Source of the DNA: Bacilli bacterium
Lineage (GTDB): Bacteria > Bacillota_I > Bacilli_A > ML615J-28 > CAG-313
DNA length: 64,000 nucleotides
Direction: 5' to 3'
NCBI GenBank assembly: GCA_017398545.1
Contig: JAFQFT010000048.1
Location: 2,418 to 66,417, forward strand
Position numbers and translations under genes: made by a program. Positions 2,415 to 26,114 of this stretch are shown piece by piece (within the stretch, counting starts at the first letter, position 1; every line of letters starts with the position of its first letter). Below the pieces are notes generated by a model that had not been told where the DNA came from, ran no database searches, and saw only the letters and a program-made list of their open reading frames with translations.

Positions 2415-2454
2415 AAAAAGTAGTATATGACTATTAAATCATATACTACTTTTT
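2415..2454. terminator. bidirectional rho-independent terminator between nrdG and the TrxR-like gene
   Basis: Perfect 16-bp stem AAAAAGTAGTATATGA / TCATATACTACTTTTT with an 8-nt loop. An A-run on one side and a T-run on the other let it serve both convergent transcripts. Confidence 0.8.
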
Positions 2455-3363: not shown

Positions 3364-3369
3364 AATTAA

Positions 3370-8716: not shown

Positions 8717-8722
8717 AAAGAC

Positions 8723-8751
8723 TTGTATTATTTGTAATAATATGTTATAAT
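8723..8751 (+). promoter_or_regulatory. sigma-A-type promoter of the 1078-aa gene
   Basis: TTGTAT (8723-8728), 17-nt spacer, TATAAT (8746-8751). A GGAGG RBS follows. Confidence 0.55.
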
Positions 8752-8781
8752 AATAGATGTGTAAAAGGAGGTATTTACCTT

Positions 8782-11700
8782 ATGAATTATTTTTTTATTA
8801 TAGATATAGTGTTACTAGTTATTCTAACTATTTCATTACTAGCAGGACTAATTAGGGGGTTTAAAAAATCTCTTAGAAGATTTATAGCATTGTTAATCCC
8901 AACAATTTGTTTGTTTATTTTCTTAGGCCCAATTACTAATGCAGTAATGAAAACAAAAGTGGATCTTGCTAAAATAGATAATATTGTTCATTTTATTCCT
9001 GATGAGTATACAAATGAACCTTATTCTATTAATGATGCAGTATCGATTATAGTGGCTGATAATATTTATCCAGATAGTGAAGCCTTACAACAAGATTCAA
9101 AAATGAATGAACTAATTATATCAGCTTCTTCAATGATTGTTAAGATTGTTGTATATTTTATAGGTTTATTCTTTGTTTGGTTAGTTAGTTTAATATTAAG
9201 ATTAGTATTTAGAATTATTTTTAGAAAAGCAAATAGAAAAGGTAAATTAATTGGACTTGGATTTGGTGCTTTACAATTTGTATTAATTTTTATTTTATAT
9301 TTATTACCTTTATTCGGTGTTGTTTCTTTTGCAAGTTCAGTTATTCATGAAGTAGATAAATATTATGAAGATGAATCTATAAAAGAAGTAATTGAATATG
9401 CAGATTTATATGAAAATACAATAACTAAAAAATATGTTTTAAATACTGCAACAAAAATCTTATGTACTGATAAATCAGTTTCATGCGATGCACAATTTGT
9501 AATGGGTGGTTTATCGTTTAAAGTTGATGGAGAAAAAGTTGTTCTTTTAGATGAATATTTAGAAATAAAAGATGCAATCCCATCAGCTATGAAAATTATA
9601 GATTTAGTAAATAGTTTAGATGGTGAAGAACAAATTGTTAAACTTTCAAATCTATCTGATGAAGATATTGAAAATATTTCAAGTGTAATTAAAAATACAA
9701 AACTTATAAGAGTAGCTATTCCTGCTGCACTTGAATACGCAGTTTATAGTAGTAAAGATTCAGAAAATGATTATAGTGATTTAATTAGTAAATTAAATCA
9801 ATTAGATTGGGACAAAGAATTAAATGCTATTGCTGATTTAATTAATGTAATAAAAAATCATAATGATTTAGAAATAAACATTAGTTCATTGGATTATGCA
9901 TTAAAATCAAGTGGTGTTATTGATCTTGCAACAGACCTTGTTAACGGTGCATTACAAATGAATATCGTTACAGAAGTTGCTATTCCATTTGTAATAAATA
10001 TGTTAGAAGATGAATTCTCAAAAGGCGAGTTTGCAGAATATCAAATAGACTTTACACCTATCAAAAATATTAACTGGAAAACAGATGGTTCTAGTTTTGT
10101 AACAACTCTTACTAATGTATATAAAGAATATTTAAGAGTAGACATTAATTTTAGTGATATTAAAGTTGCGTTAAATGATACTAAATTACCTGATTTTATT
10201 ACATATGTATTTGATGAAATTGATAAATCAGTTATTATAACTGATACGTTACTTCCAACTGTAATGCAAGTTCTTATCGCAAACTTAGAACAAGAAGAAG
10301 ATATATCTAACTTAGGTATTGATTTTGAAGAATTGAAAAAAGTTAATTGGAAAGAAAACTTAAAACCTATTAAAAACTTATTACATGATTTAATTGAATC
10401 TTATCAAGTATTAGAAATTAATCCTGAAGATTTTAAAGCAGTATTAAAAAATAATAAATTACAAGCAGAACTAGATAAATCAATTACTAATATTTTAGAT
10501 TGTGATGTATTTACAAATTACTTATTACCAATGGTGATGAATGTTTTAATAGAAAAATTAGAAACTAATGAATCACTTTCTTCATTTAATTTTGATTTTG
10601 CAGCAATTAAAAACACAAATTGGAAAACTGAATTAACATATTTTAAAGATGTATTTGTAGAATTCTTAAATGCTTATCAAGGTTTAGATTTTAATAAAGA
10701 TGATTGGATGGCTATTTTAGATAACGAAAATCTTTCAACTTATATTACTAATATATATAATGAGGCTAAAGAGTCTTCACTTGTAAGTGAACATATATTA
10801 CCTAAGCTTCCTAATAAATTGCATGAATTAATTGATGGAGTAGATAGTTCGCTTGATGTTTCATTCTTAAAAGAACTTATAACAGAAGATTCTATTGATG
10901 CTTTATTAACAAACGATTTAGATAAATTAATTATTTTATTTAAAGAAATTAAAGCACTAGGTTTATTAGATGGGGCAGAACTTGATTATACAGATGCTAA
11001 TACACAAGATAGCTTAATAAATGTAATTAAAGAAATATTTGATTTAAGTGTTGTAAACGGAAAAGAAAAAGATATATTTAAATCAATAGTTACAATGATT
11101 AATATTGAACCAGTTTTAGAACAATATGATATTACATTAGATTATGAAAATGTGGAAAATTGGGATAAAGAAGTAGATTATATTTGTACAATCTTTAAAA
11201 ATACAATGACACTTACTGGTGATTTAGAAGGATTTGATTTAACAACGCTTTTAACAAAGATTTCTACTGAAGATGAAAAAAATAGAATTGCAGAAATTGT
11301 TGAAGCAATTGGATATAGTGATTTATTTGGTGATTCTATTTATACAATAATTGATACAGTATCAAAAGAAATTGATTCCACAATTGAAATTAATTTCACA
11401 AATGAAGAGAAAAACACAATTGAAAATATAAATGGTTGGAAATTCGAAGCATTACATATTCTAGAATTAGTTGAAAAAATTGATCATATTGATTTTGGGG
11501 TAGATTATGAACATCTCAATGCAGATGAAATAAAAGATATCATGATGTATTGCTCAGAAAGTGTTGTATCAACAAAACTATTTGGAAGTATACTTAATAA
11601 TGTATTTAGTGGAGTAGTTCATCAAGATTTTACTAACCAAGATGCAATGAGAAGTTCAGCAGATTTAATCTATAATGCAATCAAAGTAGCTTCGATTGTA

Positions 11701-12018
11701 CAAAATGATAGTATTGATTTAACAGACCCGACTGTTACAAATGAATTAATCGAATCAATTGAATCTATCGCAACATCAGAAGAAAATCTTGAACTTACAA
11801 ATCAATTAATTAATGATATTGTTGGTAATGAAACTCATGTTGATTATACTAAAGAAGAAATTATTGAAGCCGCAGAAGTAGTTGAGTCAATTATTACACA
11901 ATATCAAGATGCTACTGATCAAGATAATTTTGATTTAGATAACTTATCAGAAGAAGATAAAGAAATGATTGAGAACTCTGAAATTGCAAAAGCAATTCTA
12001 GATGCATTATTTAAATAA
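8782..12018 (+). CDS. giant-repeat protein, small paralog: CvpA-like membrane anchor plus acidic W-anchored ~90-aa helical repeats
   Basis: 1078 aa. The N-terminus IIDIVLLVILTISLLAGLIRGFKKSLRRFIALL is CvpA-like. More helices extend to about aa 190, with a K/R loop (RKANRKGK). The rest is D/E/N/I/L-rich, with Trp anchor codons at nt 9808, 10075, 10348, 10621, 11161 and 11437 (aa 343, 432, 523, 614, 794, 886; about 90-aa spacing). Confidence 0.8.
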   Translation: MNYFFIIDIVLLVILTISLLAGLIRGFKKSLRRFIALLIPTICLFIFLGPITNAVMKTKVDLAKIDNIVHFIPDEYTNEPYSINDAVSIIVADNIYPDSEALQQDSKMNELIISASSMIVKIVVYFIGLFFVWLVSLILRLVFRIIFRKANRKGKLIGLGFGALQFVLIFILYLLPLFGVVSFASSVIHEVDKYYEDESIKEVIEYADLYENTITKKYVLNTATKILCTDKSVSCDAQFVMGGLSFKVDGEKVVLLDEYLEIKDAIPSAMKIIDLVNSLDGEEQIVKLSNLSDEDIENISSVIKNTKLIRVAIPAALEYAVYSSKDSENDYSDLISKLNQLDWDKELNAIADLINVIKNHNDLEINISSLDYALKSSGVIDLATDLVNGALQMNIVTEVAIPFVINMLEDEFSKGEFAEYQIDFTPIKNINWKTDGSSFVTTLTNVYKEYLRVDINFSDIKVALNDTKLPDFITYVFDEIDKSVIITDTLLPTVMQVLIANLEQEEDISNLGIDFEELKKVNWKENLKPIKNLLHDLIESYQVLEINPEDFKAVLKNNKLQAELDKSITNILDCDVFTNYLLPMVMNVLIEKLETNESLSSFNFDFAAIKNTNWKTELTYFKDVFVEFLNAYQGLDFNKDDWMAILDNENLSTYITNIYNEAKESSLVSEHILPKLPNKLHELIDGVDSSLDVSFLKELITEDSIDALLTNDLDKLIILFKEIKALGLLDGAELDYTDANTQDSLINVIKEIFDLSVVNGKEKDIFKSIVTMINIEPVLEQYDITLDYENVENWDKEVDYICTIFKNTMTLTGDLEGFDLTTLLTKISTEDEKNRIAEIVEAIGYSDLFGDSIYTIIDTVSKEIDSTIEINFTNEEKNTIENINGWKFEALHILELVEKIDHIDFGVDYEHLNADEIKDIMMYCSESVVSTKLFGSILNNVFSGVVHQDFTNQDAMRSSADLIYNAIKVASIVQNDSIDLTDPTVTNELIESIESIATSEENLELTNQLINDIVGNETHVDYTKEEIIEAAEVVESIITQYQDATDQDNFDLDNLSEEDKEMIENSEIAKAILDALFK

Positions 12019-12034
12019 AAAATTAAATAACCTA

Positions 12035-12063
12035 TTTACAAAAAGAAATTAATGTGATATACT
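12035..12063 (+). promoter_or_regulatory. strong sigma-A-type promoter with extended -10, directly after the 1078-aa gene stop
   Basis: TTTACA (12035-12040), 17-nt spacer ending in TGa, TATACT (12058-12063). Confidence 0.6.
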
Positions 12064-12069
12064 ATAACC

Positions 12070-12165
12070 AGAAGTAATCAGTTTCACTCGCATGAAACTC
12101 TTCTTCCTTAAGTAGAAAAGTCCCTTTTTAAAATAATGGTGTATTGGAGGGACTTTTTATATTCT
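12070..12165 (+). ncRNA. candidate ~90-nt small RNA (type I antitoxin-like)
   Basis: Bounded by the promoter at 12035-12063 and the hairpin at 12116-12157 plus its T-run. It contains hairpin AGTTTCA-ctcgca-TGAAACT, then the single-stranded CTTCTTCCTT (12100-12109), which complements the RBS region of the convergent small ORF. There is no ORF with an RBS inside. Confidence 0.4.
12116..12157. terminator. bidirectional hairpin shared by the candidate sRNA and the convergent small ORF
   Basis: Stem AAAAGTCCC / GGGACTTTT with a large 24-nt loop. TTTTTAT follows on + and TTTTCTACTT on -. It would also terminate the 1078-aa gene transcript. Confidence 0.5.
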
Positions 12166-12321
12166 ACTTTTTTTGTTCTTTTTTATATAACTTATAAAAG
12201 TTATCATCGCACTTATTAATCTGAATACTTCAGTAATAAACTTGATTATACTAATAAACATTGCTTCTTCCTTTCTTTGGAGAAGCACTTTTTTATTAAT
12301 AAGAAATATAAAAAGTTTCAT
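12157..12321 (-). CDS. small amphipathic peptide with basic tail (type I toxin-like), 54 aa; alternative 34-aa form from internal ATG 12261
   Basis: Hand translation: MKLFIFLINKKVLLQRKEEAMFISIIKFITEVFRLISAMITFISYIKKNKKSRI. There is a strong RBS (AAAGGAGA) 8 nt upstream of ATG 12321 and a second RBS (AAAGGAAG) before the internal ATG. The stop abuts the bidirectional hairpin. It is not in the supplied ORF track because it is under 60 aa. Confidence 0.4.
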   Translation of the reverse strand: MKLFIFLINKKVLLQRKEEAMFISIIKFITEVFRLISAMITFISYIKKNKKSRI

Positions 12322-12389
12322 GTGCTATTCTCCTTTCTTATACCCCCTATTAAATAAGAAATATAGAAGAAGAGTACACATCCCCAGGT

Positions 12390-12417
12390 AATATATATAA
12401 TACTGTATACGAGTAAA
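12390..12417 (-). promoter_or_regulatory. candidate promoter for the small minus-strand ORF
   Basis: On the minus strand: TTTACT (12417-12412), 16-nt spacer, TATATT (12395-12390). This gives a 5' UTR of about 60 nt. Confidence 0.35.
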
Positions 12418-12540
12418 CCAAATCACTTCATATACATAATTAGCAGAACTAGGGTAAATTGCTCTTTTTATTTAAGAAAAGTTTTCGACAACTATTTACA
12501 TTTGAATTTCTATTATTGAAAAAATAAAATCTAATTTATA

Positions 12541-12571
12541 AAAAAGATGTATTTGAACATCTATTTTTTTT
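12541..12571. terminator. weak bidirectional hairpin in the giant-gene upstream spacer
   Basis: AAAAAGATGT-atttga-ACATCT-A-TTTTTTTT. The stem is only 6 bp, flanked by an A-run and a T-run. Confidence 0.3.
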
Positions 12572-12720
12572 AAAAAACTTATAAAATTATTTTGCTAAAT
12601 TTTCCTATCAGACTATACTTTTTGTTATAAAAAAATTTAATTTATAATCCAATAATTGGAAAAAGTTTTAATTAAAAAAAGTAAAATCTAATTTTTTTGA
12701 ATATTTTAAGGTAGGATTAC

Positions 12721-12749
12721 TTGCAAAAAAAGAACTTTTTTAGTATAAT
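12721..12749 (+). promoter_or_regulatory. sigma-A-type promoter of the 4408-aa gene
   Basis: TTGCAA (12721-12726), 17-nt spacer, TATAAT (12744-12749). The AAGAGGTG RBS ends 7 nt before ATG 12787. Confidence 0.6.
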
Positions 12750-12786
12750 AAATGAGTAAAGTCATAAATAAAAGAGGTGAATTACA

Positions 12787-15700
12787 ATGATGGATTTTAA
12801 TCTGATATTGTTATTAGTCGGGTTGGGATTACTAGTACTAGTAGCAGTATTTGTACTTTTAGGTTGTTTCGCTGGTCTAAAGAAAGAACTTAAATGTGCA
12901 GCTATTGGCTTTGTAGTGTTACTTTTAACATTACTAGTCTTTGGCAACTCTTCAACAATCCTTGATTTTAATGGGTCATTGTTGAAGAATTTCATTCAGG
13001 GAATTCCAAGCTCTGCAGAAACTATTTGGGACTGCATTTTAGCACTTGTTCAAACAAATGTTCCTGGTGGGGCTGAGATCTTTGCTGAAGGAACAAAATC
13101 CTATGCCTTTTTATACAGTGTTGTGAGCGGCGTTGCACGTGGTGCAATGTTAATCATTGGAACATTAGTAATGTTCATTCTATGTACTATCGGTCTTGGT
13201 ATTTACCGTTTAGTTAGTAGAATTGTTGCTCACAATAAAGCTAAGAAGCGTGCTGAATCTGGTATTGTGGAACCGCAACCAGAACAAGACAAAGTTATAA
13301 ATGACAATGTTTTAGTAGCACAATCAGAAGCTGGTGATGACGAAGGAGTTATGATTACGGCAAACAAAGAGCCTGTTAAGAAAGGTTCTGGCAAACATCG
13401 TGGATGGGCTGGAGCTCTTGCGGGACTTCGTGCTGTAATTGCAATTATCTTCTTATTCGCTCCTGTATCGGGTGTATGTTCGATTCTGGATGAGATTTCT
13501 CCTGAAACTGAAACACTTATAAATGAATCATTAAGCGGTAATAAACAAAACACTGCTGCATCAAACACTATCTTAGATGTTGTTCTTGATTTTAAAGATG
13601 CATATTACGATAGTGCAGTAGGTAAGTTTATTGAAGGTTCTAAATTCTTCTTTGGTGAATCATTTAGTATGCAACTTTTCGATAGTGCATTTGTTATTGA
13701 AGGCGACAAAAATAACATTGTAGTACGTGAAGAAGCTATTGTCTTTGTAGATGCTGTAAATGCACTAGAAGGCAATCTTGATTTGAAAAAGTTAGAATAT
13801 AGCCAAATCGCTAATGCTTTAGATGAATTAAAAAATTCTGAATTACTTGTTGAAGCTATGCCTGTTGCTATTGAAACAGCATACTACTATCCAATTAATG
13901 CAAATGGAAACATTAAATTAATGGGTACTAATGAATCTCTAAAAGATTTATTATTTGCTTCAAAACAACAAGCTGCATTCTTAGAATTAAGACAAGTAGA
14001 TTGGGATAAAAACATTGAGATTTTACTTGATACTGTTAAAGAGGCTTATAAACTTGGTGTCTTAGATGAAGATTTTAATTTCTTAACTATGGATCCAGAA
14101 CAATTAAGCGCTACAGTTGAAGTACTTCTTAAATCTGATGCAATTAATAGTATTTTAAATATTGCTGTTCAAACTGCATTAAAATTAGATGTTGTTAAAA
14201 ATAATGTTGGTGAATTACCTACAGCTGACTTATCTGATTTTAGCTGGGCAAAAGAATTTGAAAATATTATTGATATCTATGAAACATTCCAAGGTTTAGA
14301 AATTACTTCATTAAGTAATCTTGATATTAAAGCATTAGTTACTGAAATCGTAAATGATGAAGACAAACTTCAAATTGTTGTAGATATTGTTAAACAAGTT
14401 ACTGAATTACAACTAGTTAACAAAGTTGGTTATGACGCATTAGTTGGATATGTTTCAAATATGAGTCATGTAGTTAATGCTGGTGATGATGTTGTTAAAG
14501 CAGTAAAAGATTTAAAAGATGTTAATTGGTCAAATGATATTAATATTTATGTTGAAGCAGCAATTGAAGCACTACCACTAATTGAAATTGGTGATGGTTT
14601 AAAAATTAATGTTGATTATCTAAATTTAGATGTTGATACAATTAGAAATGTACTTGATATCTTATTTACTACTGAATCGTTTGAAAAATTACTTCCTGTT
14701 GGTGCAAGTATCGGTTTAAATATTGCATTATCTAACGAAAAAGTAATTGGATTCTTAGGTGATATTAAAGTAGAACTTGATACTTCTGCAATTAATTGGA
14801 AACAAGAAATTACAACTTTAGTTGATGCATATGATGAATTCCAAGATCTTGGAATTAAAGAACTAAATAAAGAAGTTGATTATAAAGCATTACTTACTGA
14901 CATTGCAAATGATAGTGCTAAAGTTGAAATTGTTGAAAATGTAATTGAAAAAGTTACTGAATCACAATTGATTAAAGAAGTAGTATATGGTGTTGCAATT
15001 GAATATGTATTAAACATTAAATCTATCCAAGATCAAGGTACTGATCTTGTAGAAGCAATTCAAGAACTAAAAGAACATGATTGGTCAAAAGATATTAATG
15101 CATATGTTGATGCAGCAATCGCAGCATTACCACTAATTGAAATTGAAGAAGGATTACAAATCAAAATTGATATTCTAAATTTAGATGCAGTACAACTTCA
15201 AGTTGTTATTGATACTTTATTTACTGCTGAATCATTTGAAAAACTTTTACCTGTTGTTGCAAACATTGGTTTAGATAAAGCATTATCTAACGCTAAAGTT
15301 AAAGAACTTATTGGTGAAGAAGCAATTGTTTATGATACTTCTAATGTTAACTGGAAACAAGACTTTACATCATTAGTTAACATTTATAGTACATTCCAAG
15401 AACTTGATATTAATAGTCTAGAAGACTTTAATGATATGTTAGCTGTTGCAAAACGTATCTTAGATAGTGAAAAACAAAGTGAAGCAGTTACATCAATTTT
15501 ACATCAACTTGTTGATATGACATTATATGAAGGCGTAATTATTCCATTTGCTGATGCTACTGTAACTAATTTAATTAGTACAAGAGCTTCAAACTTTGAA
15601 GGCATTTTAAATATTACAAAACTTAATAAAGATGCATGGAAAAATGATTTTGCTGATTTAGTAGCTATTGCTAGAAATGTTTACGGAATTTGTGAATTAG

Positions 15701-18700
15701 AATTCAAACTTGAAAATATTGATTTTGAACTTCTTTGTGGAGTTCTTGGTACAGAAACTATTGAGTTAGTATTTAACTTAAATTTACTTGATGGTGATGA
15801 AGCTAAAAATCAATTAGTTATTGCTTTATTAAAACAATTTAAAGTATTTGATGAAGAACAATTAGCAAACGTTGATTTAAGTGAAGTTATCTGGGTTTCA
15901 GATGGTGAATATTCAGAAGTTGCTAATTTCCAAGCAATCTTAACTGTTTTAGGTAAAATGCTTGAAATTGATGGAATTGATTTAAATAACTTTAAATTTG
16001 ACGTTAGTGACATTCTTGCTGATGAAGATGTTTATGGATATGCAGTAGATTTATTAGATGTAGTTGTTGATTCTAAATTAATCCTTGCATTAATGCCTAA
16101 CATTCTTGATAAATACGTTGTTCCTAGAGTTGAACAATGGGATGATGAAGATGGAACATTAAGTCAAATTATTACTGGTTTAGAATCTGATGAATTAGTA
16201 CTTGAAGTTCAAAAACTAGTTGATGTTGTAAAAGCTGTTGTTGATCTTAATGTATTAAATTACAAAGAAGAAGGTATCGAAGGTATTGATTTTGCTAATA
16301 CAGATGCTCTTAAAACAATCGTTAATGGTATTTTCGATTCTAAACTATTAGAAGGTTATGAATCAAGAGTAGTTCGTATCCTACTTAAAGTTACTAATAT
16401 TTTCCCTGATCTTGCAAAAGGCACATTTGATAGTGTTGATTTCGATAGTGAACAAGCAATCTTGATTGCTGCTATTGATGCGTTAGAAGTTGTACTTAAA
16501 GATGAAAACTTCTTAACACTTGATGAAAATGGTAAATTAAAATTAGATAAAGAATTCTACTTAAAAGATGAAACTTTAGATGCATTCTTAAATGCTTTAA
16601 AAGCATTATTCGGTGAATATAAAGAAGGTTCTTCAATTTATGGTTCACAAATCGTTGAAATTTTATTACCTGATTTATTTGAAAAATTTGTTGCTAAATT
16701 AATTCCAGAACAATTCGATGAATTAATGGCTATCTTAAATATTGATGGAGCTAATCCAAGACTTCTATCTGATGATATTCGTAAAGTAATTTATATTGCT
16801 GAATTATTAATTGATGAAAAAGTTCAATCATATTTACTTGGAAATGATTATAATTTCTCTAACATTATTGATGCTTTACAAGAAGTTGTTGAAACTGTAT
16901 TTAACTTAAATATGGTTAATGGAAGTGAAGCTGAACTTATGGCTTGGGCTCTTAACTATGTACAATCAACTGCTAAATTTAATATTGCTACATTTACAGC
17001 AGAAGATTTCGCAAATGTTGATTGGGATAAAGAAGTAGTTGCAATTAATACACTACTTGATGATGTAATTAAATTTACAAATGTTAATAAGATTTCTACA
17101 GTTAATAAATTAATTAACTTCATTAAGAATAAAGACTTCTTAAAAGATGATTTCTTACAAACTTATAATTACAATGTTATATTTGAAACTATTGAAGATT
17201 TATTTGATTTACAAACAATTGAATATACACTTCCAGTACTATTAGAATATGCATTAAATGTTGCAAAAGAAAAGAACTTTGATGTTTCATTCTTAGGTGA
17301 TAACATGACTAGTGAATTACTAGTTGAAGATGTTAAATCAATTGTTGAAGCATTAAAAGTTGCTGTTTATGATATTGAAATTTTAGAATATAAGAAAGCT
17401 AATTGGACAGGTGATCTTCCAGAAGTTGAATATGTTGTTGAAATTTTAGATATTATCGTTAACCTTAATCTTTTAGAAAATAAAGAAAAACAATTATTAC
17501 GTTACTTAGTAGATAAATTTATTCCTGCTAATCCTTATGTTAAAGCAAGTGATTTCACATTCGATTTACATTATGATTTCGATGCTGATTTTGAAATCAT
17601 AAAAGAAGCTTTACCATTAGTTTATGAATTAATTTATGCTAATAACATGACTAAGATTGAACAAGTTAAAGCATTCATTACTGAAAAATGGTATATGAAT
17701 ACTGATTTAGTTAAAGATTATAATATTACTCTTGCATGTGATTTAGTTGAAGTATTAAGTGATTTACAATTAGTTGAACAAGCATTATATGGTCTTGTTA
17801 ATAACATTACTGAATTAGAAGCTCTTACTAAGATTGGTGATTTCTCAAGTTTAGAAACTCTTTCAAGAAGAGAACTAGTTAGTGATCTTAAGACACTTGT
17901 AAGTATTGTTCGTCAAGGATTAGATGCTAATTTACTAGATTATTATGTATATAAAGATTTAGATTACATTGATTATGAAGGTCTTGCTGGTATCATTGAA
18001 ACTGTTGGAACACTTAACACAGTTAAATATTGTGGTTCTGATATTCTTCCAGAAGTACTAAATTATATTCTTTCTAAAAACTCTAAATTAAATATCAACC
18101 ATACATTTACTAAAGATGATTTTGCTGATGTAAATTGGGAAGAAGAAACAATTATTTTAGGTCAAGTATTAGTTGAAACTGGTGTATTATTAAATAATAT
18201 TAATCTTGATTCGTTATCAGATATCTTATTATTTATCAATCATAAAGATTATTTAAATACAATTATTTACACTGATGCTAACGCTAAACAACTTGTTAAT
18301 ATTCTTGATGTTGCTATTGAAAGTGAAATTGTTAAAGCTGTTGGTATTATTGGATTTGATCTTGCATTAGATTTAGCAAAAGATAAAGGATTAGATATTA
18401 CATTCTTAAGAGGTAAATTAACTAGTGATGATTTAATTAGTGATTTAGATGTAATTGTTGAAATTGCATTCAATGCTATTGAATTTGGTGCTGTTGAATA
18501 CGTTGTTACTAAGAATATTAATGATATCGATACTACATATCTTGTTAATATCGTTGCATTATTAGAAGAACTTAACATTCTAAAATGTTCACAACCTGAA
18601 TGGACTGAACTTGCAGTTTCTAAAATTGCTAAGTTATTAAAACTTGAAGTAGAAGTAGCTGCTGATAAATATAGTTCAATTGATTTTGCTAATGAAAATG

Positions 18701-21700
18701 TATTACTTCAAGAAGCTATCGCGTTAATTGGTCAAATACTTGAAAATGAAAATATTCATAGTATTGATGAAATTAAACAATTTATTGGTAATAAAGATTA
18801 CTTAGATATTAATGCTTATAATGATAGAGTAATTGCTAATGCACAAGATTTATTAGTTCTTGCATCTGAAAGTGATATTTTAGGTGTTCATTTAATTGAA
18901 TTATTTGATTATGCTATATCTCTTGCATCTTCTAAGACTAAGTTTGATTTATCATTTATGGAGGACGTTGTTACAACTAGTGAACTTCAATCTGATATTA
19001 GAAAGTTAGTTGAAATTAGTGATTACTTAGTTGAATTTGGTATTGTTGAATTAATTCTTCTTGGTGATGTTGCAATTAATTTAGATCCAATTATTGAAAT
19101 GGTTCCTTTATTAGAAGAAGTTAATCTTCTTACTAAGACTAATGATTATATTGCAGAAATCGTTTATAATATGATTCTTCCTAAGATTGGTTTAAAATCT
19201 GTTGATGTTGAACACTTCGAAGATATCAATTTCGCAAATGAAAATGCTGTATTAGTTAAAGTATTAGAAGAAGCTAAAGTATTATTAGAACTTGAAAACT
19301 TTACTACTGTATCTGATGTTGTATCATTTGTTAAGAATAAAGAATACTTATATTCTGATAAATATGAACAAACATTTGCTAGTGATGCAGTTGAATCAAT
19401 GTTTAGACTTGTTCAATTAGCAGTTTCTAGTGAGCTTGTTCAATTAGAACTTGTTCCATTATTCAATTATGGTGTTTCTAAACTATCTGAAAAAGTTGAT
19501 GTTTCATTCTTAGAAGACAGTGTTAAAACATCTGAACTAGTAAGTGATGTTGATGTATTAATTAAGATGGCAAGACTTGCTATTGAATTTGGTGCATTAG
19601 AATATGTATTTACTAAGAATATTGAAGTTGTTAATCTTGAACCAGTAATTGAAATTGTTGCTTTATTAGAAGAATTAAATATCGCTAAGAACAACGATAG
19701 AGAACTTAGTGCATTTGTATTTAACTTTATTTATGATAAACTTGGTATTAATAAAGATGCTAACGAATTAGTTAAAGCAAAACAAGGTCGTTCATCTAAA
19801 GTTAAACCTAGTGAATTTGTATATATCAATTATGCAAGTGAAAACTTAATTCTTCAAGATGCTCTTGAAGTAGTTAGCTTGTTACAAGAAGACTTTGGTT
19901 TAATTTCATTAAATGATATTATTGAATTTGTTAAGAACAAAGAATATACTAAGATTAGAGAATTTAGTGCTCCAGTTTATACTCATGCATTAGATTTAAT
20001 TAATGTTGCTACTGTTTCTACATTAGTTCAATATGCACTTCCTACTTTAGCAGACTTTGGTTTAGATAAAGTAAGTGGAAAAGGATATGACTTCACATAC
20101 CTTTCAGGTGTATTTACTGGTGCTGAACTTGCAAATGATATTAGAGTTATTGCTAAAGAAGCAGTATTCTGGTTAAGAGATAATAACATTTTAACTGCTC
20201 TTGATAATAAAGCTATTGAATCTTACTATTTTGATGAATTAGCTGAAACTATTAAAGCATTTAAAGATGTTAATATTCTAAATTATGAACAAGCTACTCT
20301 AGTTACTAAACTTACTAATATAATTTATGAAAAAGTGTTCAAGTATGAAGGTAGAATTAATGAAGCTTACTTTGCAGATGTTAATTGGGCTGTTGAATTT
20401 GATAATGTTGCTGCATTATTAGTTGAACTTGGTGATATCATTGAAACATTTGGTGTTGAAAATAATTTATTATCACTTTCTGGATTAAACGAATTCAAAG
20501 CTAATGCTAAGAATATTGAAATCTATAATGATGAAGAATTATTAAATAACTTTGCAGATGTTCTAGTTGCTCTAAGTAAATCAAGCGCATTATTATCTGA
20601 ACTTGAATTTGCAGAAGAATACTTAATTTCTAGATTTGCTGCTAAAGGCATTACATTAAATTCAATCTATACTACTAAAGAAGGTCTTGCTGAAGATTTA
20701 ATTACTTTAAGCGATGCATTATATGTTGTATATCCTTCTAACGTTTTAGGATTTGCTACTGGTAAAGAAGAACTTAACCAAGCATATGTAGTTGAACTTG
20801 TTGCTGCTATTGAATCAATTCTTGATATGAACTTATTAGCAGAATCTAAGTCTGACATTCTTGATTTAGTATTCGGTAAACTTGGCATTAATGTTGATAA
20901 AACAAATCTTGATGCTATAGTTTGGGAAAATGCTGAAACTGAAGTTGTTGGTGACTTATTACTTGCTGTTAATGATTTAATGGTTGAACTAGAAGTATTA
21001 ACAATTCAAGATGTTAAAGCTATTAATGTAAAAGAATACTTAACAATTAATTATGAAACTAATGATCAATTAGCTGCTATTAATGCTGTTCTTAATGTTG
21101 TATTAGAAAGTAAGTTAGTTGAAGCTTCATTATTTGGTATTTCTGAAAAATACTTAAATAGTGAAAAATTAAGTGGATATGCTGATTTACATGTTATCTA
21201 TACAGATGCTGCACAAGTTAAAGAAGACTTAGCTAAATTAGTTGCTGTAATTGATGCCGTTATTGAATTAAATGTATGTAGTTTCTTAGTTGAAGGTTCT
21301 AACATTCCATATGAAAATAAAGCTGCTATTGAAACTATTATTTATAATGTATTAACATTAAATTACTTAAATAATGAAGGTAGAATTAGTGAACTTGTTT
21401 CTAAAGTATCTTCAATCGATACATCAAGCATTAATTTTGATAATATTGATTTAGTAAATGATGCTCAATTATTAATTGATGCATATGAAGAATTATATCC
21501 AATCTTAATTTCAGATGAATTCTTCTTGAAGACTAAGAATGATCTTAAATATATTACTAAAGAAGATATTAAGTTCTTAATTAATGAAGAAAACTTACCT
21601 TCTGTTAGAGATGCTTTAAATAATATTCTTGATACTACTATCGTATCTGAAACAAATGGTGCTATCTTCTTATTAGTAGCTCCTCTAATTAAGAAAGCTG

Positions 21701-24700
21701 CTCCTAAATATTATGAAGCTATTGATCCTGAAAGATTAACAGTTGAAGAACTTGGCGAAGATGTAACTGCAATCTTTGACTTAGTTAGAGATGTTCTTGA
21801 TGCTGATCTTAACAGAATCGGTAAAGGTGAGATTTTCAATGCTGATGTTGAAGAATTAATTTCTAATGTAATTAACACAATTGCAAATCTAAATCTTCTT
21901 AATAGTAGATTTGATGATCTTGCATTAGTTATTGCAGATGATCTTGATTCTAAACGTGTTGGCAATTACTACTTTGATAAGTCATTATATAACTTAACTG
22001 ATGTAATGTATGAATCAGATTTACTTGCATTAATTGATGTTATTGCTGCTGTTTATGATTTATTTGAAGCTGAAAATATTGCTACAATTCAAGATGTAAT
22101 TGATTTCTTTGGTAATAAAGCTAATGTTATTGAATTATTAGCTAATACTACTCAAGTTAATAATCTTGAAAATATTATTAAATTAGTTACTGAACTTACA
22201 TTTGTTCAACACAATATTTTACCTGTATATAACGAAGCATTACAAGGTAAATTAGCAAAATTAGTTGGTTCTGAACTTGCAGATGTAACTTGCGTATATG
22301 CTACAAGCGAAGAAATGACTAATGACATTACAAGAATTCTTGATGTATTTAGAGATTTAATTGATCTAGGTGTATTTGAAGTATTAGATGGTGCTGAAAT
22401 TAATTATGATCAAGTTGCTCTTGTTAAGAAACTTCTTGCTGATATTGCTTCAGTTGAATATGTAAATGTTCAAAAACAAAATATTTTAGAATTTGTTGAT
22501 AGTAAAGTTAAAGCTGATCTATCTAAATTAGATGTTTCATCAATGGATTTAGTTAATGATTTAACTATAATTGGTGAAATGTATGAACAATTAATCCCAG
22601 TTCTATTATCTGAATATAATGCATTTACTACTGTATCTGCTTTTAAAGAAGGTACAATTGTTAAATCCGATTTATATGCTCTTATTTATGATTATCAATC
22701 AATCTATCCATCAGTTGTAACATTATTTAGTGAAGTTTCTATTGCTCCACAATTAGTTAAATTGGCTGCTGATTCAGCAAGCAATGGATTAACTGGAATT
22801 GCTAAACAAATCGTTGAAGTACTTGATGTTGAAAATGCTAGTGATGCAGATATTATTGAAGACCTTGTTGCTAGTGCTACAGTATTAGGCTATGTTAAAG
22901 ATCTTGACTTATTAAATAAAGTTCTTTACAAAGAAGATATTGCAGTTACTGACAATGAAACAATTGCTGCTCTAGTTGCAAGTGTATTTGAATTAAATAT
23001 TGTTGATAATAAGTTTGTTGAATTAGTTGAAGTTGTTCTTGAAGAAGTTCTTCATTTAGACTTAACTGATGTTGACTTAAATATTAATAATGTTGATAAA
23101 GAACAAGCACTTATTGTTGACTTAGTTAATAATGGTGTAATTGTTATGAATGATTTAGGTGCTCTAAACTTATCAGATGCTAAACCATTAATCCAAGATA
23201 TTAAGAATGTGTTAACTAGTGGTAATGTTAGTCTAGACGTTTATCTTCTTGTTGATAGTCTTGAATTATTAGTACAATCTGAATTATTTGAACAACTTGC
23301 AATTCCTACATATGAACAAAAAGTTTATCCTAAATTTACTGGTACTCTTGCTATTGCTGGAGATCTTCGTGATTATTCACAAGAACAATTTGCAGAAGAT
23401 TTAGATTTAATTACTGAAATGATTAATGATTTCAAAGTTTCTGGTCTTGATGATTTAATCTTTAAGGGTGTTACTCCTGAAAAAACTTGCATCCCATACT
23501 TAGAAAGAATTATTAGAAATCTATGTATGTTAAATATTGTTGAAGTTAAGAAAGCTGATGTTCCTACTTGTCTTCAAGATGTATTAGATAAGCAAGGTTT
23601 AACTTCAGTTATTAGAGAATACGTTGAAGACTTTGACTTAACTAAGTATGACTTATCATCTATTAGTTTCAAATCTGATGCTGATATTTATGCTTCTATG
23701 GCTCAACAAATTTATATCATTCTTGAAACTGTAATTAAGGAAGGATTTGATGCTCCATTCTTCGGTAAACATGATGCTATGGTTGCTCTTGTTGAAATTT
23801 ATGAAATTTCTCTAGATACAACTTTAGTTAAAGTAGTTGCTGATAAAGTATTAAGTGTTGCTAGTGAAGTTGCTGGTGCATTTGATTTAACAGTAAATGA
23901 AAATGATGAAGAAGTTCTTATCAATATTGCTAACTTCTTATATGGTTTAGTTGATTTAGGTGTAGTTGGTGCTGATGCTATTGATTTCACTGATAAAGAT
24001 ACTATTGATGTAATGATTCAATCTGTTTATAACATCGTTACAATTCCTGAAGAAATTAAAGTATGGGTTACTAAAGTTGCTTCAAGATTATATGCTTATG
24101 GTGTTGTACCATTTGATTGGAACATTGTAACATTTGCTAATGAATTAACAGTAGTTAATAATTTAGTTTCACAAATTGTTTCATTCAATCATGAAATTAA
24201 CGCTGCTGCATTTGTTAATCCAGCTGTTCAAGCTGATATTAATGAAATGATTTATACAATTAGTGATTCTTCATTTGTTGAACAATTATTCTTCCCATTC
24301 GTTGAGGGTACATTTAAAGCATTAACATTATCATATACTGATGGTGAAATGGTTTACGATGCTACACTAGATGATGTATTAGAATATTCACTTCCTAACT
24401 TCTGGAAATTAGTTAATGCTGCTTATGAAATTACTGAATTTAAGTATGGTTTATCTGCTAATCTAATTCTTGATAACTTAGGTTCTGTTAGAGCAATCGT
24501 TGAAGTATTAGGTACTGATATTATGATTAAAGATAATCTTGCTAAGATTATTGCAACAGGTATTGGTGTATTTACTGATTATGACCTATCTGATGAAGAA
24601 TATGCTGAATTACTTGCTATTGATTTCGAAAATGAAGTTGTATACTCAAATGCGTTCTTTGCTGCATTAGAAGATACTTATAACAATTATCCATTCTCAT

Positions 24701-26013
24701 TAGACAAAGCTATGTTAAAAGATGCTAACGTTGTTAAAGGATTAGCTGATGCTATTGAAGAAATTTTACCAAGTGAAACAGTTAAAGTATTCGGAAGACT
24801 TGTAATTAATATTGTTAATAATAACTTAATTGTTAATATACTTCCTGAGGTTTCTACTATTGTTAATGATCGTCTATTTGATGATAATTATACAGATGAA
24901 TTAATCGTTGATGATTTACATATGATTGTTGAAATCTTAAGAAATGCTGCTGATTCTGGTATTCTAACTAATAGAACAGACTTTGCAAGTTGGAACTTCA
25001 CAGCTATTAGAAATATCGTTACTCTATGCTTCGATACTAACTTAGCTGATGGTTGTGCAAATGAACTTGCTGAAGCTTGTATTAGTGTTATTCCTGTTAT
25101 TAATGAATATTATGACTCAACAGTTGTAATTAATAATTGGGAAGATGAAGTTAATGCAATCGTTGATGCTCTTGAAGAATTAGTTAACCACGGTTTAGAT
25201 TCTATTTCTGATCCATTTGATGACAGAATTACTGGTGAATTAATGTATATATTAACTCAATCTGAAATTATTACAAATGGTATGGTAACTGAAGTTAATA
25301 AGGGTCTAAAAGATCATAATTTAAGTGATTATGAAATTACAGCTGATGATATTAAAGCTGTTCAAACTGCTGAAAAGTGGGATAAAGAACTAGTTGCATT
25401 AAGAAATATTGAATCTGTTGGTATCTTAAATTCTAAAGATTCATTAACAGATGAAGATAGAGAAAATATTATTAATGCAGTTAAGTCGATTAAAGGTACT
25501 ATTTTATGTGATAAAGTATTATCTGAATCTGCTGAAACATTAGTTCCTAAACTACCAGTTATTAAGAACTATCCTGAAGCTCTTACAGATATTTCTGGTG
25601 ATGAATGGTCAGTTGAATTACATATCATTATCGATGCATTAGATGTATTACCTATCGATATTGCTACAGTAGAAAATCCAATCGAAACATTAACTGGTGA
25701 AATGATGGTAGCTTCATTAAAATCTAAGATTTTAACTACCGCAATCACAAGTGAATTTAACCATCAATTAGTTAATTTAGATTTACCATTTACAGTTGCT
25801 GAAAGTGATTTAACATCAATTCAAACTGCTGCTGAATGGGATACTGAACTTGACACAATTCTTGAAATTAAGGATGTATTAGATAACTATGAAAACGGTA
25901 CTGTAACTCTTCCTCAAGTAGTTACTCTATACAATAAAGTAGTTGCTGAAACAGTTCTTGCTGAAAAGATTTTAGTTAAGGCATTAGATGATAGAGGTAT
26001 TACTCTTGCATAA
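12787..26013 (+). CDS. giant-repeat protein, large paralog: CvpA-like membrane anchor plus ~4150 aa of acidic W-anchored helical repeats
   Basis: Uninterrupted 4408-aa ORF. The N-terminal 230 aa or so hold about five hydrophobic helices (LILLLVGLGLLVLVAVFVLLGCFAGLKKELK...), K/R-rich loops (AHNKAKKRAE, KKGSGKHRGW) and a last helix (LRAVIAIIFLFAPVSGVCSIL). The remainder is D/E/I/L/V/N-rich and poor in Cys, Pro, His and Arg. A [VI]-[ND]-W-x-x-[DE] anchor recurs about every 90 aa (Trp codons at nt 14002, 14245, 14527, 14797, 15082, 15352, 15637, and more). Confidence 0.85.
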   Translation: MMDFNLILLLVGLGLLVLVAVFVLLGCFAGLKKELKCAAIGFVVLLLTLLVFGNSSTILDFNGSLLKNFIQGIPSSAETIWDCILALVQTNVPGGAEIFAEGTKSYAFLYSVVSGVARGAMLIIGTLVMFILCTIGLGIYRLVSRIVAHNKAKKRAESGIVEPQPEQDKVINDNVLVAQSEAGDDEGVMITANKEPVKKGSGKHRGWAGALAGLRAVIAIIFLFAPVSGVCSILDEISPETETLINESLSGNKQNTAASNTILDVVLDFKDAYYDSAVGKFIEGSKFFFGESFSMQLFDSAFVIEGDKNNIVVREEAIVFVDAVNALEGNLDLKKLEYSQIANALDELKNSELLVEAMPVAIETAYYYPINANGNIKLMGTNESLKDLLFASKQQAAFLELRQVDWDKNIEILLDTVKEAYKLGVLDEDFNFLTMDPEQLSATVEVLLKSDAINSILNIAVQTALKLDVVKNNVGELPTADLSDFSWAKEFENIIDIYETFQGLEITSLSNLDIKALVTEIVNDEDKLQIVVDIVKQVTELQLVNKVGYDALVGYVSNMSHVVNAGDDVVKAVKDLKDVNWSNDINIYVEAAIEALPLIEIGDGLKINVDYLNLDVDTIRNVLDILFTTESFEKLLPVGASIGLNIALSNEKVIGFLGDIKVELDTSAINWKQEITTLVDAYDEFQDLGIKELNKEVDYKALLTDIANDSAKVEIVENVIEKVTESQLIKEVVYGVAIEYVLNIKSIQDQGTDLVEAIQELKEHDWSKDINAYVDAAIAALPLIEIEEGLQIKIDILNLDAVQLQVVIDTLFTAESFEKLLPVVANIGLDKALSNAKVKELIGEEAIVYDTSNVNWKQDFTSLVNIYSTFQELDINSLEDFNDMLAVAKRILDSEKQSEAVTSILHQLVDMTLYEGVIIPFADATVTNLISTRASNFEGILNITKLNKDAWKNDFADLVAIARNVYGICELEFKLENIDFELLCGVLGTETIELVFNLNLLDGDEAKNQLVIALLKQFKVFDEEQLANVDLSEVIWVSDGEYSEVANFQAILTVLGKMLEIDGIDLNNFKFDVSDILADEDVYGYAVDLLDVVVDSKLILALMPNILDKYVVPRVEQWDDEDGTLSQIITGLESDELVLEVQKLVDVVKAVVDLNVLNYKEEGIEGIDFANTDALKTIVNGIFDSKLLEGYESRVVRILLKVTNIFPDLAKGTFDSVDFDSEQAILIAAIDALEVVLKDENFLTLDENGKLKLDKEFYLKDETLDAFLNALKALFGEYKEGSSIYGSQIVEILLPDLFEKFVAKLIPEQFDELMAILNIDGANPRLLSDDIRKVIYIAELLIDEKVQSYLLGNDYNFSNIIDALQEVVETVFNLNMVNGSEAELMAWALNYVQSTAKFNIATFTAEDFANVDWDKEVVAINTLLDDVIKFTNVNKISTVNKLINFIKNKDFLKDDFLQTYNYNVIFETIEDLFDLQTIEYTLPVLLEYALNVAKEKNFDVSFLGDNMTSELLVEDVKSIVEALKVAVYDIEILEYKKANWTGDLPEVEYVVEILDIIVNLNLLENKEKQLLRYLVDKFIPANPYVKASDFTFDLHYDFDADFEIIKEALPLVYELIYANNMTKIEQVKAFITEKWYMNTDLVKDYNITLACDLVEVLSDLQLVEQALYGLVNNITELEALTKIGDFSSLETLSRRELVSDLKTLVSIVRQGLDANLLDYYVYKDLDYIDYEGLAGIIETVGTLNTVKYCGSDILPEVLNYILSKNSKLNINHTFTKDDFADVNWEEETIILGQVLVETGVLLNNINLDSLSDILLFINHKDYLNTIIYTDANAKQLVNILDVAIESEIVKAVGIIGFDLALDLAKDKGLDITFLRGKLTSDDLISDLDVIVEIAFNAIEFGAVEYVVTKNINDIDTTYLVNIVALLEELNILKCSQPEWTELAVSKIAKLLKLEVEVAADKYSSIDFANENVLLQEAIALIGQILENENIHSIDEIKQFIGNKDYLDINAYNDRVIANAQDLLVLASESDILGVHLIELFDYAISLASSKTKFDLSFMEDVVTTSELQSDIRKLVEISDYLVEFGIVELILLGDVAINLDPIIEMVPLLEEVNLLTKTNDYIAEIVYNMILPKIGLKSVDVEHFEDINFANENAVLVKVLEEAKVLLELENFTTVSDVVSFVKNKEYLYSDKYEQTFASDAVESMFRLVQLAVSSELVQLELVPLFNYGVSKLSEKVDVSFLEDSVKTSELVSDVDVLIKMARLAIEFGALEYVFTKNIEVVNLEPVIEIVALLEELNIAKNNDRELSAFVFNFIYDKLGINKDANELVKAKQGRSSKVKPSEFVYINYASENLILQDALEVVSLLQEDFGLISLNDIIEFVKNKEYTKIREFSAPVYTHALDLINVATVSTLVQYALPTLADFGLDKVSGKGYDFTYLSGVFTGAELANDIRVIAKEAVFWLRDNNILTALDNKAIESYYFDELAETIKAFKDVNILNYEQATLVTKLTNIIYEKVFKYEGRINEAYFADVNWAVEFDNVAALLVELGDIIETFGVENNLLSLSGLNEFKANAKNIEIYNDEELLNNFADVLVALSKSSALLSELEFAEEYLISRFAAKGITLNSIYTTKEGLAEDLITLSDALYVVYPSNVLGFATGKEELNQAYVVELVAAIESILDMNLLAESKSDILDLVFGKLGINVDKTNLDAIVWENAETEVVGDLLLAVNDLMVELEVLTIQDVKAINVKEYLTINYETNDQLAAINAVLNVVLESKLVEASLFGISEKYLNSEKLSGYADLHVIYTDAAQVKEDLAKLVAVIDAVIELNVCSFLVEGSNIPYENKAAIETIIYNVLTLNYLNNEGRISELVSKVSSIDTSSINFDNIDLVNDAQLLIDAYEELYPILISDEFFLKTKNDLKYITKEDIKFLINEENLPSVRDALNNILDTTIVSETNGAIFLLVAPLIKKAAPKYYEAIDPERLTVEELGEDVTAIFDLVRDVLDADLNRIGKGEIFNADVEELISNVINTIANLNLLNSRFDDLALVIADDLDSKRVGNYYFDKSLYNLTDVMYESDLLALIDVIAAVYDLFEAENIATIQDVIDFFGNKANVIELLANTTQVNNLENIIKLVTELTFVQHNILPVYNEALQGKLAKLVGSELADVTCVYATSEEMTNDITRILDVFRDLIDLGVFEVLDGAEINYDQVALVKKLLADIASVEYVNVQKQNILEFVDSKVKADLSKLDVSSMDLVNDLTIIGEMYEQLIPVLLSEYNAFTTVSAFKEGTIVKSDLYALIYDYQSIYPSVVTLFSEVSIAPQLVKLAADSASNGLTGIAKQIVEVLDVENASDADIIEDLVASATVLGYVKDLDLLNKVLYKEDIAVTDNETIAALVASVFELNIVDNKFVELVEVVLEEVLHLDLTDVDLNINNVDKEQALIVDLVNNGVIVMNDLGALNLSDAKPLIQDIKNVLTSGNVSLDVYLLVDSLELLVQSELFEQLAIPTYEQKVYPKFTGTLAIAGDLRDYSQEQFAEDLDLITEMINDFKVSGLDDLIFKGVTPEKTCIPYLERIIRNLCMLNIVEVKKADVPTCLQDVLDKQGLTSVIREYVEDFDLTKYDLSSISFKSDADIYASMAQQIYIILETVIKEGFDAPFFGKHDAMVALVEIYEISLDTTLVKVVADKVLSVASEVAGAFDLTVNENDEEVLINIANFLYGLVDLGVVGADAIDFTDKDTIDVMIQSVYNIVTIPEEIKVWVTKVASRLYAYGVVPFDWNIVTFANELTVVNNLVSQIVSFNHEINAAAFVNPAVQADINEMIYTISDSSFVEQLFFPFVEGTFKALTLSYTDGEMVYDATLDDVLEYSLPNFWKLVNAAYEITEFKYGLSANLILDNLGSVRAIVEVLGTDIMIKDNLAKIIATGIGVFTDYDLSDEEYAELLAIDFENEVVYSNAFFAALEDTYNNYPFSLDKAMLKDANVVKGLADAIEEILPSETVKVFGRLVINIVNNNLIVNILPEVSTIVNDRLFDDNYTDELIVDDLHMIVEILRNAADSGILTNRTDFASWNFTAIRNIVTLCFDTNLADGCANELAEACISVIPVINEYYDSTVVINNWEDEVNAIVDALEELVNHGLDSISDPFDDRITGELMYILTQSEIITNGMVTEVNKGLKDHNLSDYEITADDIKAVQTAEKWDKELVALRNIESVGILNSKDSLTDEDRENIINAVKSIKGTILCDKVLSESAETLVPKLPVIKNYPEALTDISGDEWSVELHIIIDALDVLPIDIATVENPIETLTGEMMVASLKSKILTTAITSEFNHQLVNLDLPFTVAESDLTSIQTAAEWDTELDTILEIKDVLDNYENGTVTLPQVVTLYNKVVAETVLAEKILVKALDDRGITLA
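14245..15354 (+). repeat. tandem 555-bp (185-aa) duplication inside the giant gene
   Basis: Unit 1 (FSWAKEFENIIDIYETFQGLEI...TESFEKLLPVGASIGLNIALSNEKV) and unit 2 (INWKQEITTLVDAYDEFQDLGI...AESFEKLLPVVANIGLDKALSNAKV) align colinearly. Similarity is still visible in the DNA, for example gaatcgtttgaaaaattacttcctgttggtgcaag against gaatcatttgaaaaacttttacctgttgttgcaaa, 555 bp apart. Confidence 0.8.
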
Positions 26014-26024: not shown

Positions 26025-26059
26025 AGAAGCATTCATATTATATGAGTGCTTCTTTTTTT
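26025..26059 (+). terminator. rho-independent terminator of the giant gene
   Basis: Stem AGAAGCATTCATA / TATGAGTGCTTCT (13 bp with one G-U pair), loop TTA, then TTTTTT. Confidence 0.8.
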
Positions 26060-26085: not shown

Positions 26086-26114
26086 TTGACAAAACAGTAA
26101 TATTTTGATATAAT
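26086..26114 (+). promoter_or_regulatory. sigma-A-type promoter of rpmE
   Basis: TTGACA (26086-26091), 17-nt spacer, TATAAT (26109-26114). Confidence 0.65.

Follow-up and report, generated by a model that had tools for sequence, protein, structure and literature searches.

Introduction

The canonical CvpA is a small single-domain protein of about 160 amino acids (aa). Members of the family occur across bacterial phyla and matter for gut colonisation and bile resistance through a mechanism that is still not known, and the Escherichia coli protein is predicted by several methods to be four-pass and to have its C-terminus in the periplasm, with a tail whose length varies between species (10.1101/2020.09.25.314492). 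Four N-terminal membrane helices are likewise followed by a periplasmic C-terminal protease domain in MarP (PMC4992679), while the staphylococcal proteins Ebh and Embp are megadalton-class all-helical repeat rods on the Gram-positive envelope (PMC7587433, PMC4856396). Here we describe two adjacent genes, S and its larger paralogue L, in a 64,000-nucleotide stretch of DNA (the window, from whose first letter positions are counted) from a Bacilli bacterium (assembly GCA_017398545.1, contig JAFQFT010000048.1), the products of which carry a CvpA-type membrane domain in front of about 890 (S) and 4170 (L) residues of acidic repeat sequence. S is the intact open reading frame (ORF) at 8782-12018 (+ strand, 1078 aa) and L the intact ORF at 12787-26013 (+ strand, 4408 aa, 13 kb of coding sequence), exactly the positions, strand and lengths that an earlier note, made from the letters of the DNA, had given for them. 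The family to which they belong is widespread and its architecture was previously undescribed; the literature searched holds no description of CvpA-fused giant proteins.

Results

The N-terminal four-helix domain is the part that S and L have in common with CvpA. In S it is recognised directly by the Pfam model Colicin_V (PF02674), with 36.8 bits for residues 1-200 against a cut-off of 29.3 and 30.8 bits for the full-length protein, and the same model is matched independently by six of 11 diverse N-termini from the family (E up to 0.1). L no longer fits the Pfam model, either at full length or as its N-terminus, but hhalign aligns S-type and L-type N-termini with a probability of 98.1% (E 7.5e-14, 181 columns), bringing all four helices into register and revealing in L an insertion of about 50 aa relative to S in loop 3, which is predicted to be cytoplasmic. 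The anchor of S is of CvpA type by direct profile match and that of L by profile homology to S, so that the CvpA anchor assigned to both proteins in the earlier note holds, with L lacking a Pfam match of its own. Hydropathy places the membrane helices at about residues 4-26, 33-53, 113-145 and 157-185 of S and 5-30, 36-58, 115-142 and 208-235 of L. What the earlier note had described as a CvpA-like domain, one K/R-rich loop and one further helix is in fact a set of four helices with two K/R-rich loops (loops 1 and 3) and, between helices 2 and 3, an acidic loop of about 60 aa in S and 55-80 aa across the family, which is additional to the CvpA plan. It is in the C-terminal tail that members of the CvpA family vary, and this tail is predicted to lie outside in CvpA as in S and L; in S and L, unlike CvpA, it is a repeat region that makes up 82-95% of the protein. 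The anchor of MarP is presumably of CvpA type as well. In MarP (Rv3671c, Mycobacterium tuberculosis), as in S and L, four N-terminal helices bear a C-terminal domain (PMC4992679), which is a 200-aa serine protease in the former and a predicted repeat rod in the latter. S-type and L-type proteins share an invariant P-x-x-G-x-x-S motif where helix 4 reaches its outer end. Signal-peptidase cleavage after this helix was considered and dropped, as the S-x-A-S sequence of S-type proteins is not conserved in L-type proteins and only P-x-x-G-x-x-S is common to both.

The charge of the loops suggests how this domain sits in the membrane. Across 12 family members, loops 1 and 3 contain 2-13 Lys/Arg residues. 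In S-type and distant members these loops have almost no acidic residues, whereas in L-type proteins loop 3, which is long, includes 10-11 Asp/Glu residues as well. Nearly all 12 have a net acidic N-terminus and loop 2, and a net acidic stretch of 25 residues following helix 4. By the positive-inside rule both termini, and therefore the repeats, would face outward. The composition of S and L resembles that of the recognisable exported proteins of the window, namely the solute-binding protein SBP_bac_5 (isoelectric point (pI) 4.26, Arg 1.4%, Cys 0.4%), which shares their paucity of Arg and Cys, a second solute-binding protein (pI 4.65) and an amidase (pI 4.78); most cytoplasmic proteins of the window have a pI above 5, with 2-5% Arg and 1-3% Cys. 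Past residue 240 there is no strong hydrophobic segment in S or L, save two marginal windows in L. Taken from the positive-inside rule, the CvpA prediction and composition, the favoured prediction is that the repeats probably lie outside the membrane, and the outside repeat region of the earlier note gains the support of all three, as a prediction.

Asp and Glu together make up 17.5% of S and 17.0% of L, and Lys and Arg 8.0% and 7.2% (Arg 1.0-1.3%), giving a pI of 4.27 and 4.16 respectively and a net charge of -12 to -27 per 200 residues throughout the soluble part of both proteins, in which Cys (0.6% of S, 0.4% of L), Pro (1.8%, 1.6%) and Gly (3.0%, 3.9%) are scarce. In both proteins a membrane-proximal region of about 150 residues comes before the uniformly acidic sequence. 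These counts agree with the acidic, Cys-, Pro- and Gly-poor region that the earlier note had seen. Iterated hidden Markov models (HMMs) find about 17 significant units in L and five in S, and windowed self-BLAST of L returns offsets of about 185 aa with E down to 3e-55. The period is a super-repeat of about 182-185 aa composed of two 90-aa halves, present in at least 16 copies in L (residues ~400-3275) and three in S (residues 429-593, 611-759 and 793-951, ~182 aa each, with partial units before them); the unit of about 90 aa proposed earlier is real as one half of this two-part repeat. An aromatic anchor opens each half-unit, and an acidic residue comes after it. The motif W-x-x-[DE] occurs at 17 of the 26 Trp residues in the soluble part of L, about four-fold more than the 4.5 expected and a count that none of 2000 shuffles reached. 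The eight Trp residues of S are all unchanged across 14 orthologues that range down to 42% identity (those of the repeat region being W343, W432, W523, W614, W642, W794 and W886), with an invariant Glu at +3 of four of these anchors. The Trp-x-x-acid anchor of the earlier note is thereby sustained, except that later and middle copies in L have Phe, Tyr or Leu in place of the Trp. At the distal end of L, W-x-x-E anchors stand at residues 4118, 4198, 4274 and 4351, with Trp spacings of 80, 76 and 77, while residues ~700-1080 of S, its C-terminal region, are the best-matching stretch in many distant family members. The two genes contain no tandem repeats at the DNA level, and the array must therefore be old; a recently expanded or phase-variable adhesin was dropped as a candidate on the same observation.

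AlphaFold2, given 14 orthologues as the alignment, models S as an almost purely helical protein, in line with the all-helical look that the earlier note had described; the mean predicted local distance difference test (pLDDT) score is 81, with 80-93 in the repeats, and each 90-aa half-unit has three long and a few short helices. One isolated super-repeat of L, with the 16 paralogous units as the alignment, was modelled poorly (pLDDT 57), and Foldseek matches of this model were noise (E above 2). Foldseek of the S model returned nothing below E 0.08 from the PDB and nothing from BFVD. The nearest neighbours of S are HEAT/ARM alpha-solenoids (karyopherin-beta, CAND1 and exportins), which resemble it in their stacked helical repeats; the match is non-significant, however (E at least 0.08, TM-score 0.10-0.15), there is no Pfam HEAT or Arm match, the unit of S is longer, at about 90 aa with three long helices, and these neighbours are, unlike S, eukaryotic and cytosolic.

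Searches for known families were similarly empty. The repeat region has no significant Pfam or NCBIfam match; PHROGs gave S and L only E above 0.02, PADLOC gave no match, and PDB sequence searches with the S-family profile, the repeat profile and L found nothing. The empty PADLOC result also led us to drop an anti-phage defence system. A motif scan of S and L found no LPXTG, YSIRK, Walker A or HExxH motif, and Pfam and NCBIfam found no SLH, LysM, CWB, GW, RHS/YD, nonribosomal peptide synthetase or polyketide synthase, or immunoglobulin (Ig)/cadherin domain. The view that these proteins fall in no known giant-protein class, put forward in the earlier note, is borne out by the lack of a match to the repeat region in Pfam, NCBIfam, PHROGs, PADLOC, PDB and BFVD, and at the level of sequence the repeat is a class without described relatives among the libraries searched. 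Judged by analogy, Ebh and Embp may be the closest functional analogues, sharing the all-helical repeat architecture (S model pLDDT 81) and presumably an elongated shape. They differ in every other feature by which membership would be recognised: S and L lack the FIVAR, GA and DUF1542 modules (Pfam scan E up to 1; PDB sequence search empty) as well as the YSIRK signal and LPXTG anchor, they are anchored by an N-terminal four-helix CvpA domain where Ebh and Embp are anchored C-terminally, and their Trp-anchored repeat of ~185 aa has no sequence relationship to those of the staphylococcal proteins.

Orthologues of S number 70, with lengths of 1026-1095 aa (nearly all 1078-1095, and one of 1026), and its relatives come from gut metagenomes and from metagenome-assembled genomes labelled Erysipelotrichaceae or Bacilli. 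In the close clade the order lyase, murA, S, L, rpmE is kept down to 42% S identity, so that the murA-rpmE setting reported in the earlier note is correct here and preserved in relatives; the gene directly 3' of murA is of S type in L001, L002, L003, L004, L011 and L012. A scan of species-representative genomes, with patterns taken from the close clade, found four close relatives. L orthologues are single genes ending just 5' of rpmE in six contigs, the 5' ends of which lie outside the fetched DNA. L proteins measure 4243, 4245, 4408, 4557, 4624, 4736 and 5116 aa and are intact in every assembly, and at least eight independent assemblies contain the orthologous ORFs at full length. The length of S is fixed, and the number of repeats in L varies between species.

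An exhaustive profile search of 1.84 billion representatives extended the family to 308 clusters (50% identity) at E up to 1e-3, 122 of them at E up to 1e-10, with most members 750-2500 aa long. Distant members retain the four-helix N-terminus and W-x-x-E repeats and have no Pfam repeat domain. The distant branch is represented on NCBI genome contigs, for instance by the 2265-aa protein P0228. Among the distant members, S-type proteins of 1173 and 1449 aa are encoded directly 3' of murA, and one of the contigs also has a nearby L-type paralogue; the small and large proteins, whose co-occurrence the earlier note had proposed to check, are thus found paired again in divergent lineages. Because the murA-S adjacency and the S-L pair recur in distant lineages, both the murA linkage and the S/L duplication are old. 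A second branch (1737-2485 aa; L008, L010, L013) occupies a different conserved neighbourhood, with genes for thioredoxin, TraX and an Rce1-like CPBP protease divergently upstream of the giant gene and Impact_N (YigZ) immediately downstream, overlapping or abutting its stop codon. With 308 clusters, the distant recurrences and this second branch elsewhere, the lineage-specific insertion or expansion suggested in the earlier note is too narrow a description. A mobile or phage origin was rejected, since tblastn against plasmids and phages gave no match and the G+C content is native: the window is AT-rich (24-32% G+C), and the S/L locus shows no compositional break and equals its neighbouring genes.

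Ratios of nonsynonymous to synonymous substitution rates (dN/dS), computed against a 91%-identical relative and by codon alignment in the case of L, are 0.05 for nrdD, 0.04 for the lyase and 0.15 for murA. S has a value of 0.12, even across its regions (0.155 in the membrane domain and 0.115 in the repeats), and by this measure, and in its fixed length, it is under housekeeping-level constraint. L has a dN/dS of 0.27 over its first 1400 residues and 0.41 overall over the last ~3100 aligned residues, climbing distally from 0.25-0.34 to 0.40-0.63 in the last ~1300 aligned codons, where the values are perhaps somewhat inflated by alignment around indels; the C-terminal third is the fastest-evolving part of the protein.

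Strong ribosome-binding sites precede both S and L (Table 1). The sigma-A-type promoter that the earlier note had given to each gene remains a plausible candidate, in that suitable sites precede both genes, with no excess of promoter-like hexamers over shuffled sequence (30 found, 36.9 expected). The spacer between S and L is a variable spot. It measures 769 bp here and 241-291 bp in two relatives (L001, L002), while in L004, the 91%-identical relative, it spans 5.8 kb (13238-19022) and holds a gene for a 1131-aa BspA-type leucine-rich repeat (LRR) surface protein. Rfam found no RNA element in the 769-bp gap. A 54-aa hydrophobic, Lys-rich ORF lies on the minus strand at 12157-12321 within the spacer.

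Table 1. Positions of features of the S/L locus in the window.
Feature	Position	Strand	Evidence or remark
murA-type gene (UDP-GlcNAc enolpyruvyl transferase family)	7472-8716	+	Pfam EPSP_synthase E 3e-68; directly 5' of S
Candidate extended -10 of S (TGTTATAAT)	8743-8751	+	Read from sequence; unlisted by consensus scan
Ribosome-binding site of S (AAAGGAGG)	8764-8771	+	Read from sequence
S residues 1-190, CvpA-like four-helix membrane domain	8782-9351	+	Pfam Colicin_V, hydropathy, loop charges
P-x-x-G-x-x-S motif, S residues 176-185	9307-9336	+	Alignments
S residues 191-340, membrane-proximal, helical with short beta hairpins	9352-9801	+	DSSP strands 245-248, 251-254, 285-287; conserved in family
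S residues 341-973, Trp-anchored helical repeats	9802-11700	+	Repeat HMMs
S residues 974-1078, conserved helical C-terminal end	11701-12018	+	pLDDT 81-91
S-L intergenic region, 769 bp	12019-12786	.	Varies between species
Terminator-like hairpin, ~240 nt 3' of S	12262-12287	+	Inside S-L spacer
Promoter-like TTGCAA-17-TATAAT before L	12721-12749	+	S-L spacer
Ribosome-binding site AGAGGTG of L	12773-12779	+	S-L spacer
L residues 1-237, four-helix membrane domain homologous to that of S	12787-13497	+	hhalign, hydropathy
P-x-x-G-x-x-S motif, L residues 226-232	13462-13482	+	Alignments
L residues ~401-3275, array of at least 16 two-part ~185-aa super-repeats	13987-22611	+	HMMs, self-BLAST
L residues ~3276-3973, helical, acidic, weakly repetitive	22612-24705	+	Few or weak repeat matches; charge profile
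L residues ~3974-4408, distal ~77-aa repeats (~150 aa as pairs)	24706-26013	+	Self-matches at offsets 147-154
Terminator-like hairpin, 13-bp stem and T run, directly 3' of L	26025-26053	+	Ends L transcription unit
12/12 consensus promoter for rpmE	26086-26114	+	After L terminator-like hairpin
rpmE (ribosomal protein L31)	26177-26401	+	Translation, Pfam Ribosomal_L31; 3' neighbour of L

Discussion

We read S and L together as a membrane-tethered structural or protective polyanionic layer of the envelope, a rod and a fibre on a CvpA anchor, and give this reading a probability of about 0.5. S and L would be ancient paralogues, chromosomal and vertically inherited envelope proteins, in which a CvpA-type four-helix domain has both its ends on the outer face of the membrane. 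Helix 4 would serve as an uncleaved export signal, by which the whole C-terminal region is threaded out via the Sec pathway, and the exported region would fold into a long acidic rod of stacked helical repeats, each half-repeat opening with a buried Trp or other aromatic residue and then an acidic one. S would provide a short spacer of fixed length in the wall zone and L, four to five times longer, a fibre that reaches to or beyond the wall surface, the two forming a negatively charged layer and not an enzyme. The topology, the rod shape and the structural or protective role are inferred from the features described above, and the surface fibre or coat of the earlier note is held at the same strength.

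Several points weigh against this reading. Alpha-solenoid-like folds are typical of cytoplasmic proteins, and no wall-binding or sortase motif was found in S or L. The topology is predicted from the positive-inside rule and from the CvpA predictions, and a functional N-terminal sfGFP-CvpA fusion (10.1101/2020.09.25.314492) is awkward for an outside N-terminus, although as a counter-indication it is small. The composition control comprises three exported proteins, the fold of L is carried over from S, with a pLDDT of 57 for the isolated L super-repeat, and the export of about 4170 acidic residues from an internal signal-anchor would be demanding.

Some of these points would suit a reversed topology, with the repeats inside the cell as a membrane-tethered, cytoskeleton-like scaffold for which EzrA-type spectrin-like repeats offer the comparison. 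All-helical solenoid or bundle repeats, the cytosolic nature of the nearest Foldseek neighbours and the lack of a cleavable signal peptide are consistent with it, and the functional N-terminal fusion of CvpA could hint at an inside N-terminus (10.1101/2020.09.25.314492). Two loops with 3-13 Lys/Arg residues would then have to face outside in 12 of 12 proteins, however, while the composition of S and L matches that of exported proteins of the same genome and several predictors place the C-terminus of CvpA in the periplasm (10.1101/2020.09.25.314492), and we consider such a scaffold very unlikely. If the repeats do face outward, the fibres, mainly L, might act in the gut as adhesins that bind host mucus, plant particles or other cells, with the anchor serving as a tether only. 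The origin of the carriers in gut metagenomes, the variable repeat number and fast-evolving distal end of L, and the BspA-type LRR surface-protein gene between S and L in one relative are what one would expect of an adhesin, and fibronectin is bound by giant helical proteins of staphylococci, Embp among them (PMC7587433). Yet Pfam recognises neither a lectin nor any other known binding domain in S or L, and no Ig-like or LRR module. The repeats are of old date and have diverged, and they show neither DNA-level repetition nor a sign of phase variation; S combines a fixed length with a housekeeping-like dN/dS of 0.12, the adjacency to murA is kept across distant lineages, and proteins so uniformly negative would be repelled by mucin and by most cell surfaces. 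Adhesion as the main role therefore appears unlikely.

A different emphasis would fall on the membrane domain, as a channel or sensor that would handle a solute or ion or act in envelope stress, and that the rod would couple to the wall mechanically or as a sensor. CvpA has been reported to be MscS/MscL-like by HHpred and Phyre2 and is linked to envelope stress and bile resistance, its periplasmic C-terminus appearing both necessary and variable (10.1101/2020.09.25.314492); the membrane domain is also the only part of S and L with a recognisable family, and both types keep P-x-x-G-x-x-S unchanged at the exit of helix 4. On the other hand, this domain is not more constrained in S than the repeats (dN/dS 0.155 against 0.115), two paralogues with very different rod lengths would be left unexplained, and no transport function of CvpA has been demonstrated, all of which makes a channel or sensor quite improbable. 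That the genes are a product of misassembly, pseudogenes or non-expressed frames in AT-rich DNA is refuted for practical purposes by the conservation data, namely full-length orthologous ORFs in at least eight independent assemblies, dN/dS well below 1 and invariant Trp anchors; strong ribosome-binding sites and terminator-like hairpins 3' of both genes argue in the same direction.

A bolder form of the envelope-layer reading, to which we attach a small chance, would make S and L a putative protein counterpart of lipoteichoic acid, with S as a ruler, L as an outer polyanionic brush and the CvpA domain as the point of coupling to the membrane. The uniform charge, the adjacency to murA and the invariant length of S are compatible with it, as is the patchy occurrence of teichoic-acid genes in Erysipelotrichales (PMC12786226). 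If it were true, the CvpA family would gain a structural role as anchor for extracytoplasmic modules and a new type of Gram-positive envelope layer would be added to those described. In any case the S/L family has turned the variable, predicted outside tail of CvpA into a putative rod of 900-5000 residues, and so long a tail lends support to the view that CvpA domains serve extracytoplasmic partners as an anchor or coupling module. The repeat class is shared by hundreds of protein clusters of gut Firmicutes, and should S and L form a surface layer, this would shape phage access, immune recognition and resistance to bile or peptides in poorly known gut bacteria.

Other features of the window

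On the minus strand 5' of murA lie nrdD and a gene for a class-II fumarase/aspartase-type lyase, and rpmE is followed by genes for an ABC-F ATPase, an M18 aminopeptidase and an aBig_2/amidase wall hydrolase. The order in B. subtilis is presumably murAB-glpX-rho-rpmE; rho is absent from the 64-kb window. The surroundings vary among relatives: in L017 two extra genes separate L and rpmE (8504-9826), encoding a 333-aa protein with faint OB-fold matches and a 69-aa ORF, while in L014, a SIG222 relative, the place of the genes 3' of the amidase (15738-20225) is taken by a toxin-antitoxin-like pair (AbiEii/DUF6088) and by a protein of more than 1040 aa that combines a MACPF domain with Listeria-Bacteroides repeats.

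Further from the locus, the SBP_bac_5 solute-binding protein (832 aa, 43064-45562) heads an Opp-type ABC operon (45742-51701), and exported proteins of the source organism may share an acidic, Arg- and Cys-poor signature. At one end of the window (17-1732) a protein of 571 aa, rich in Asn (11.6%), poor in Arg and unmatched in Pfam, is encoded just 5' of a radical-SAM activase-like gene (1719-2414), and L002 has in the same position a gene for 644 aa (1018-2952), also with no Pfam match. A T-box leader at 53838-54062, which with 93.7 bits just exceeds the gathering score of Rfam, lies 5' of a threonyl-tRNA synthetase-type gene (54125-56029).

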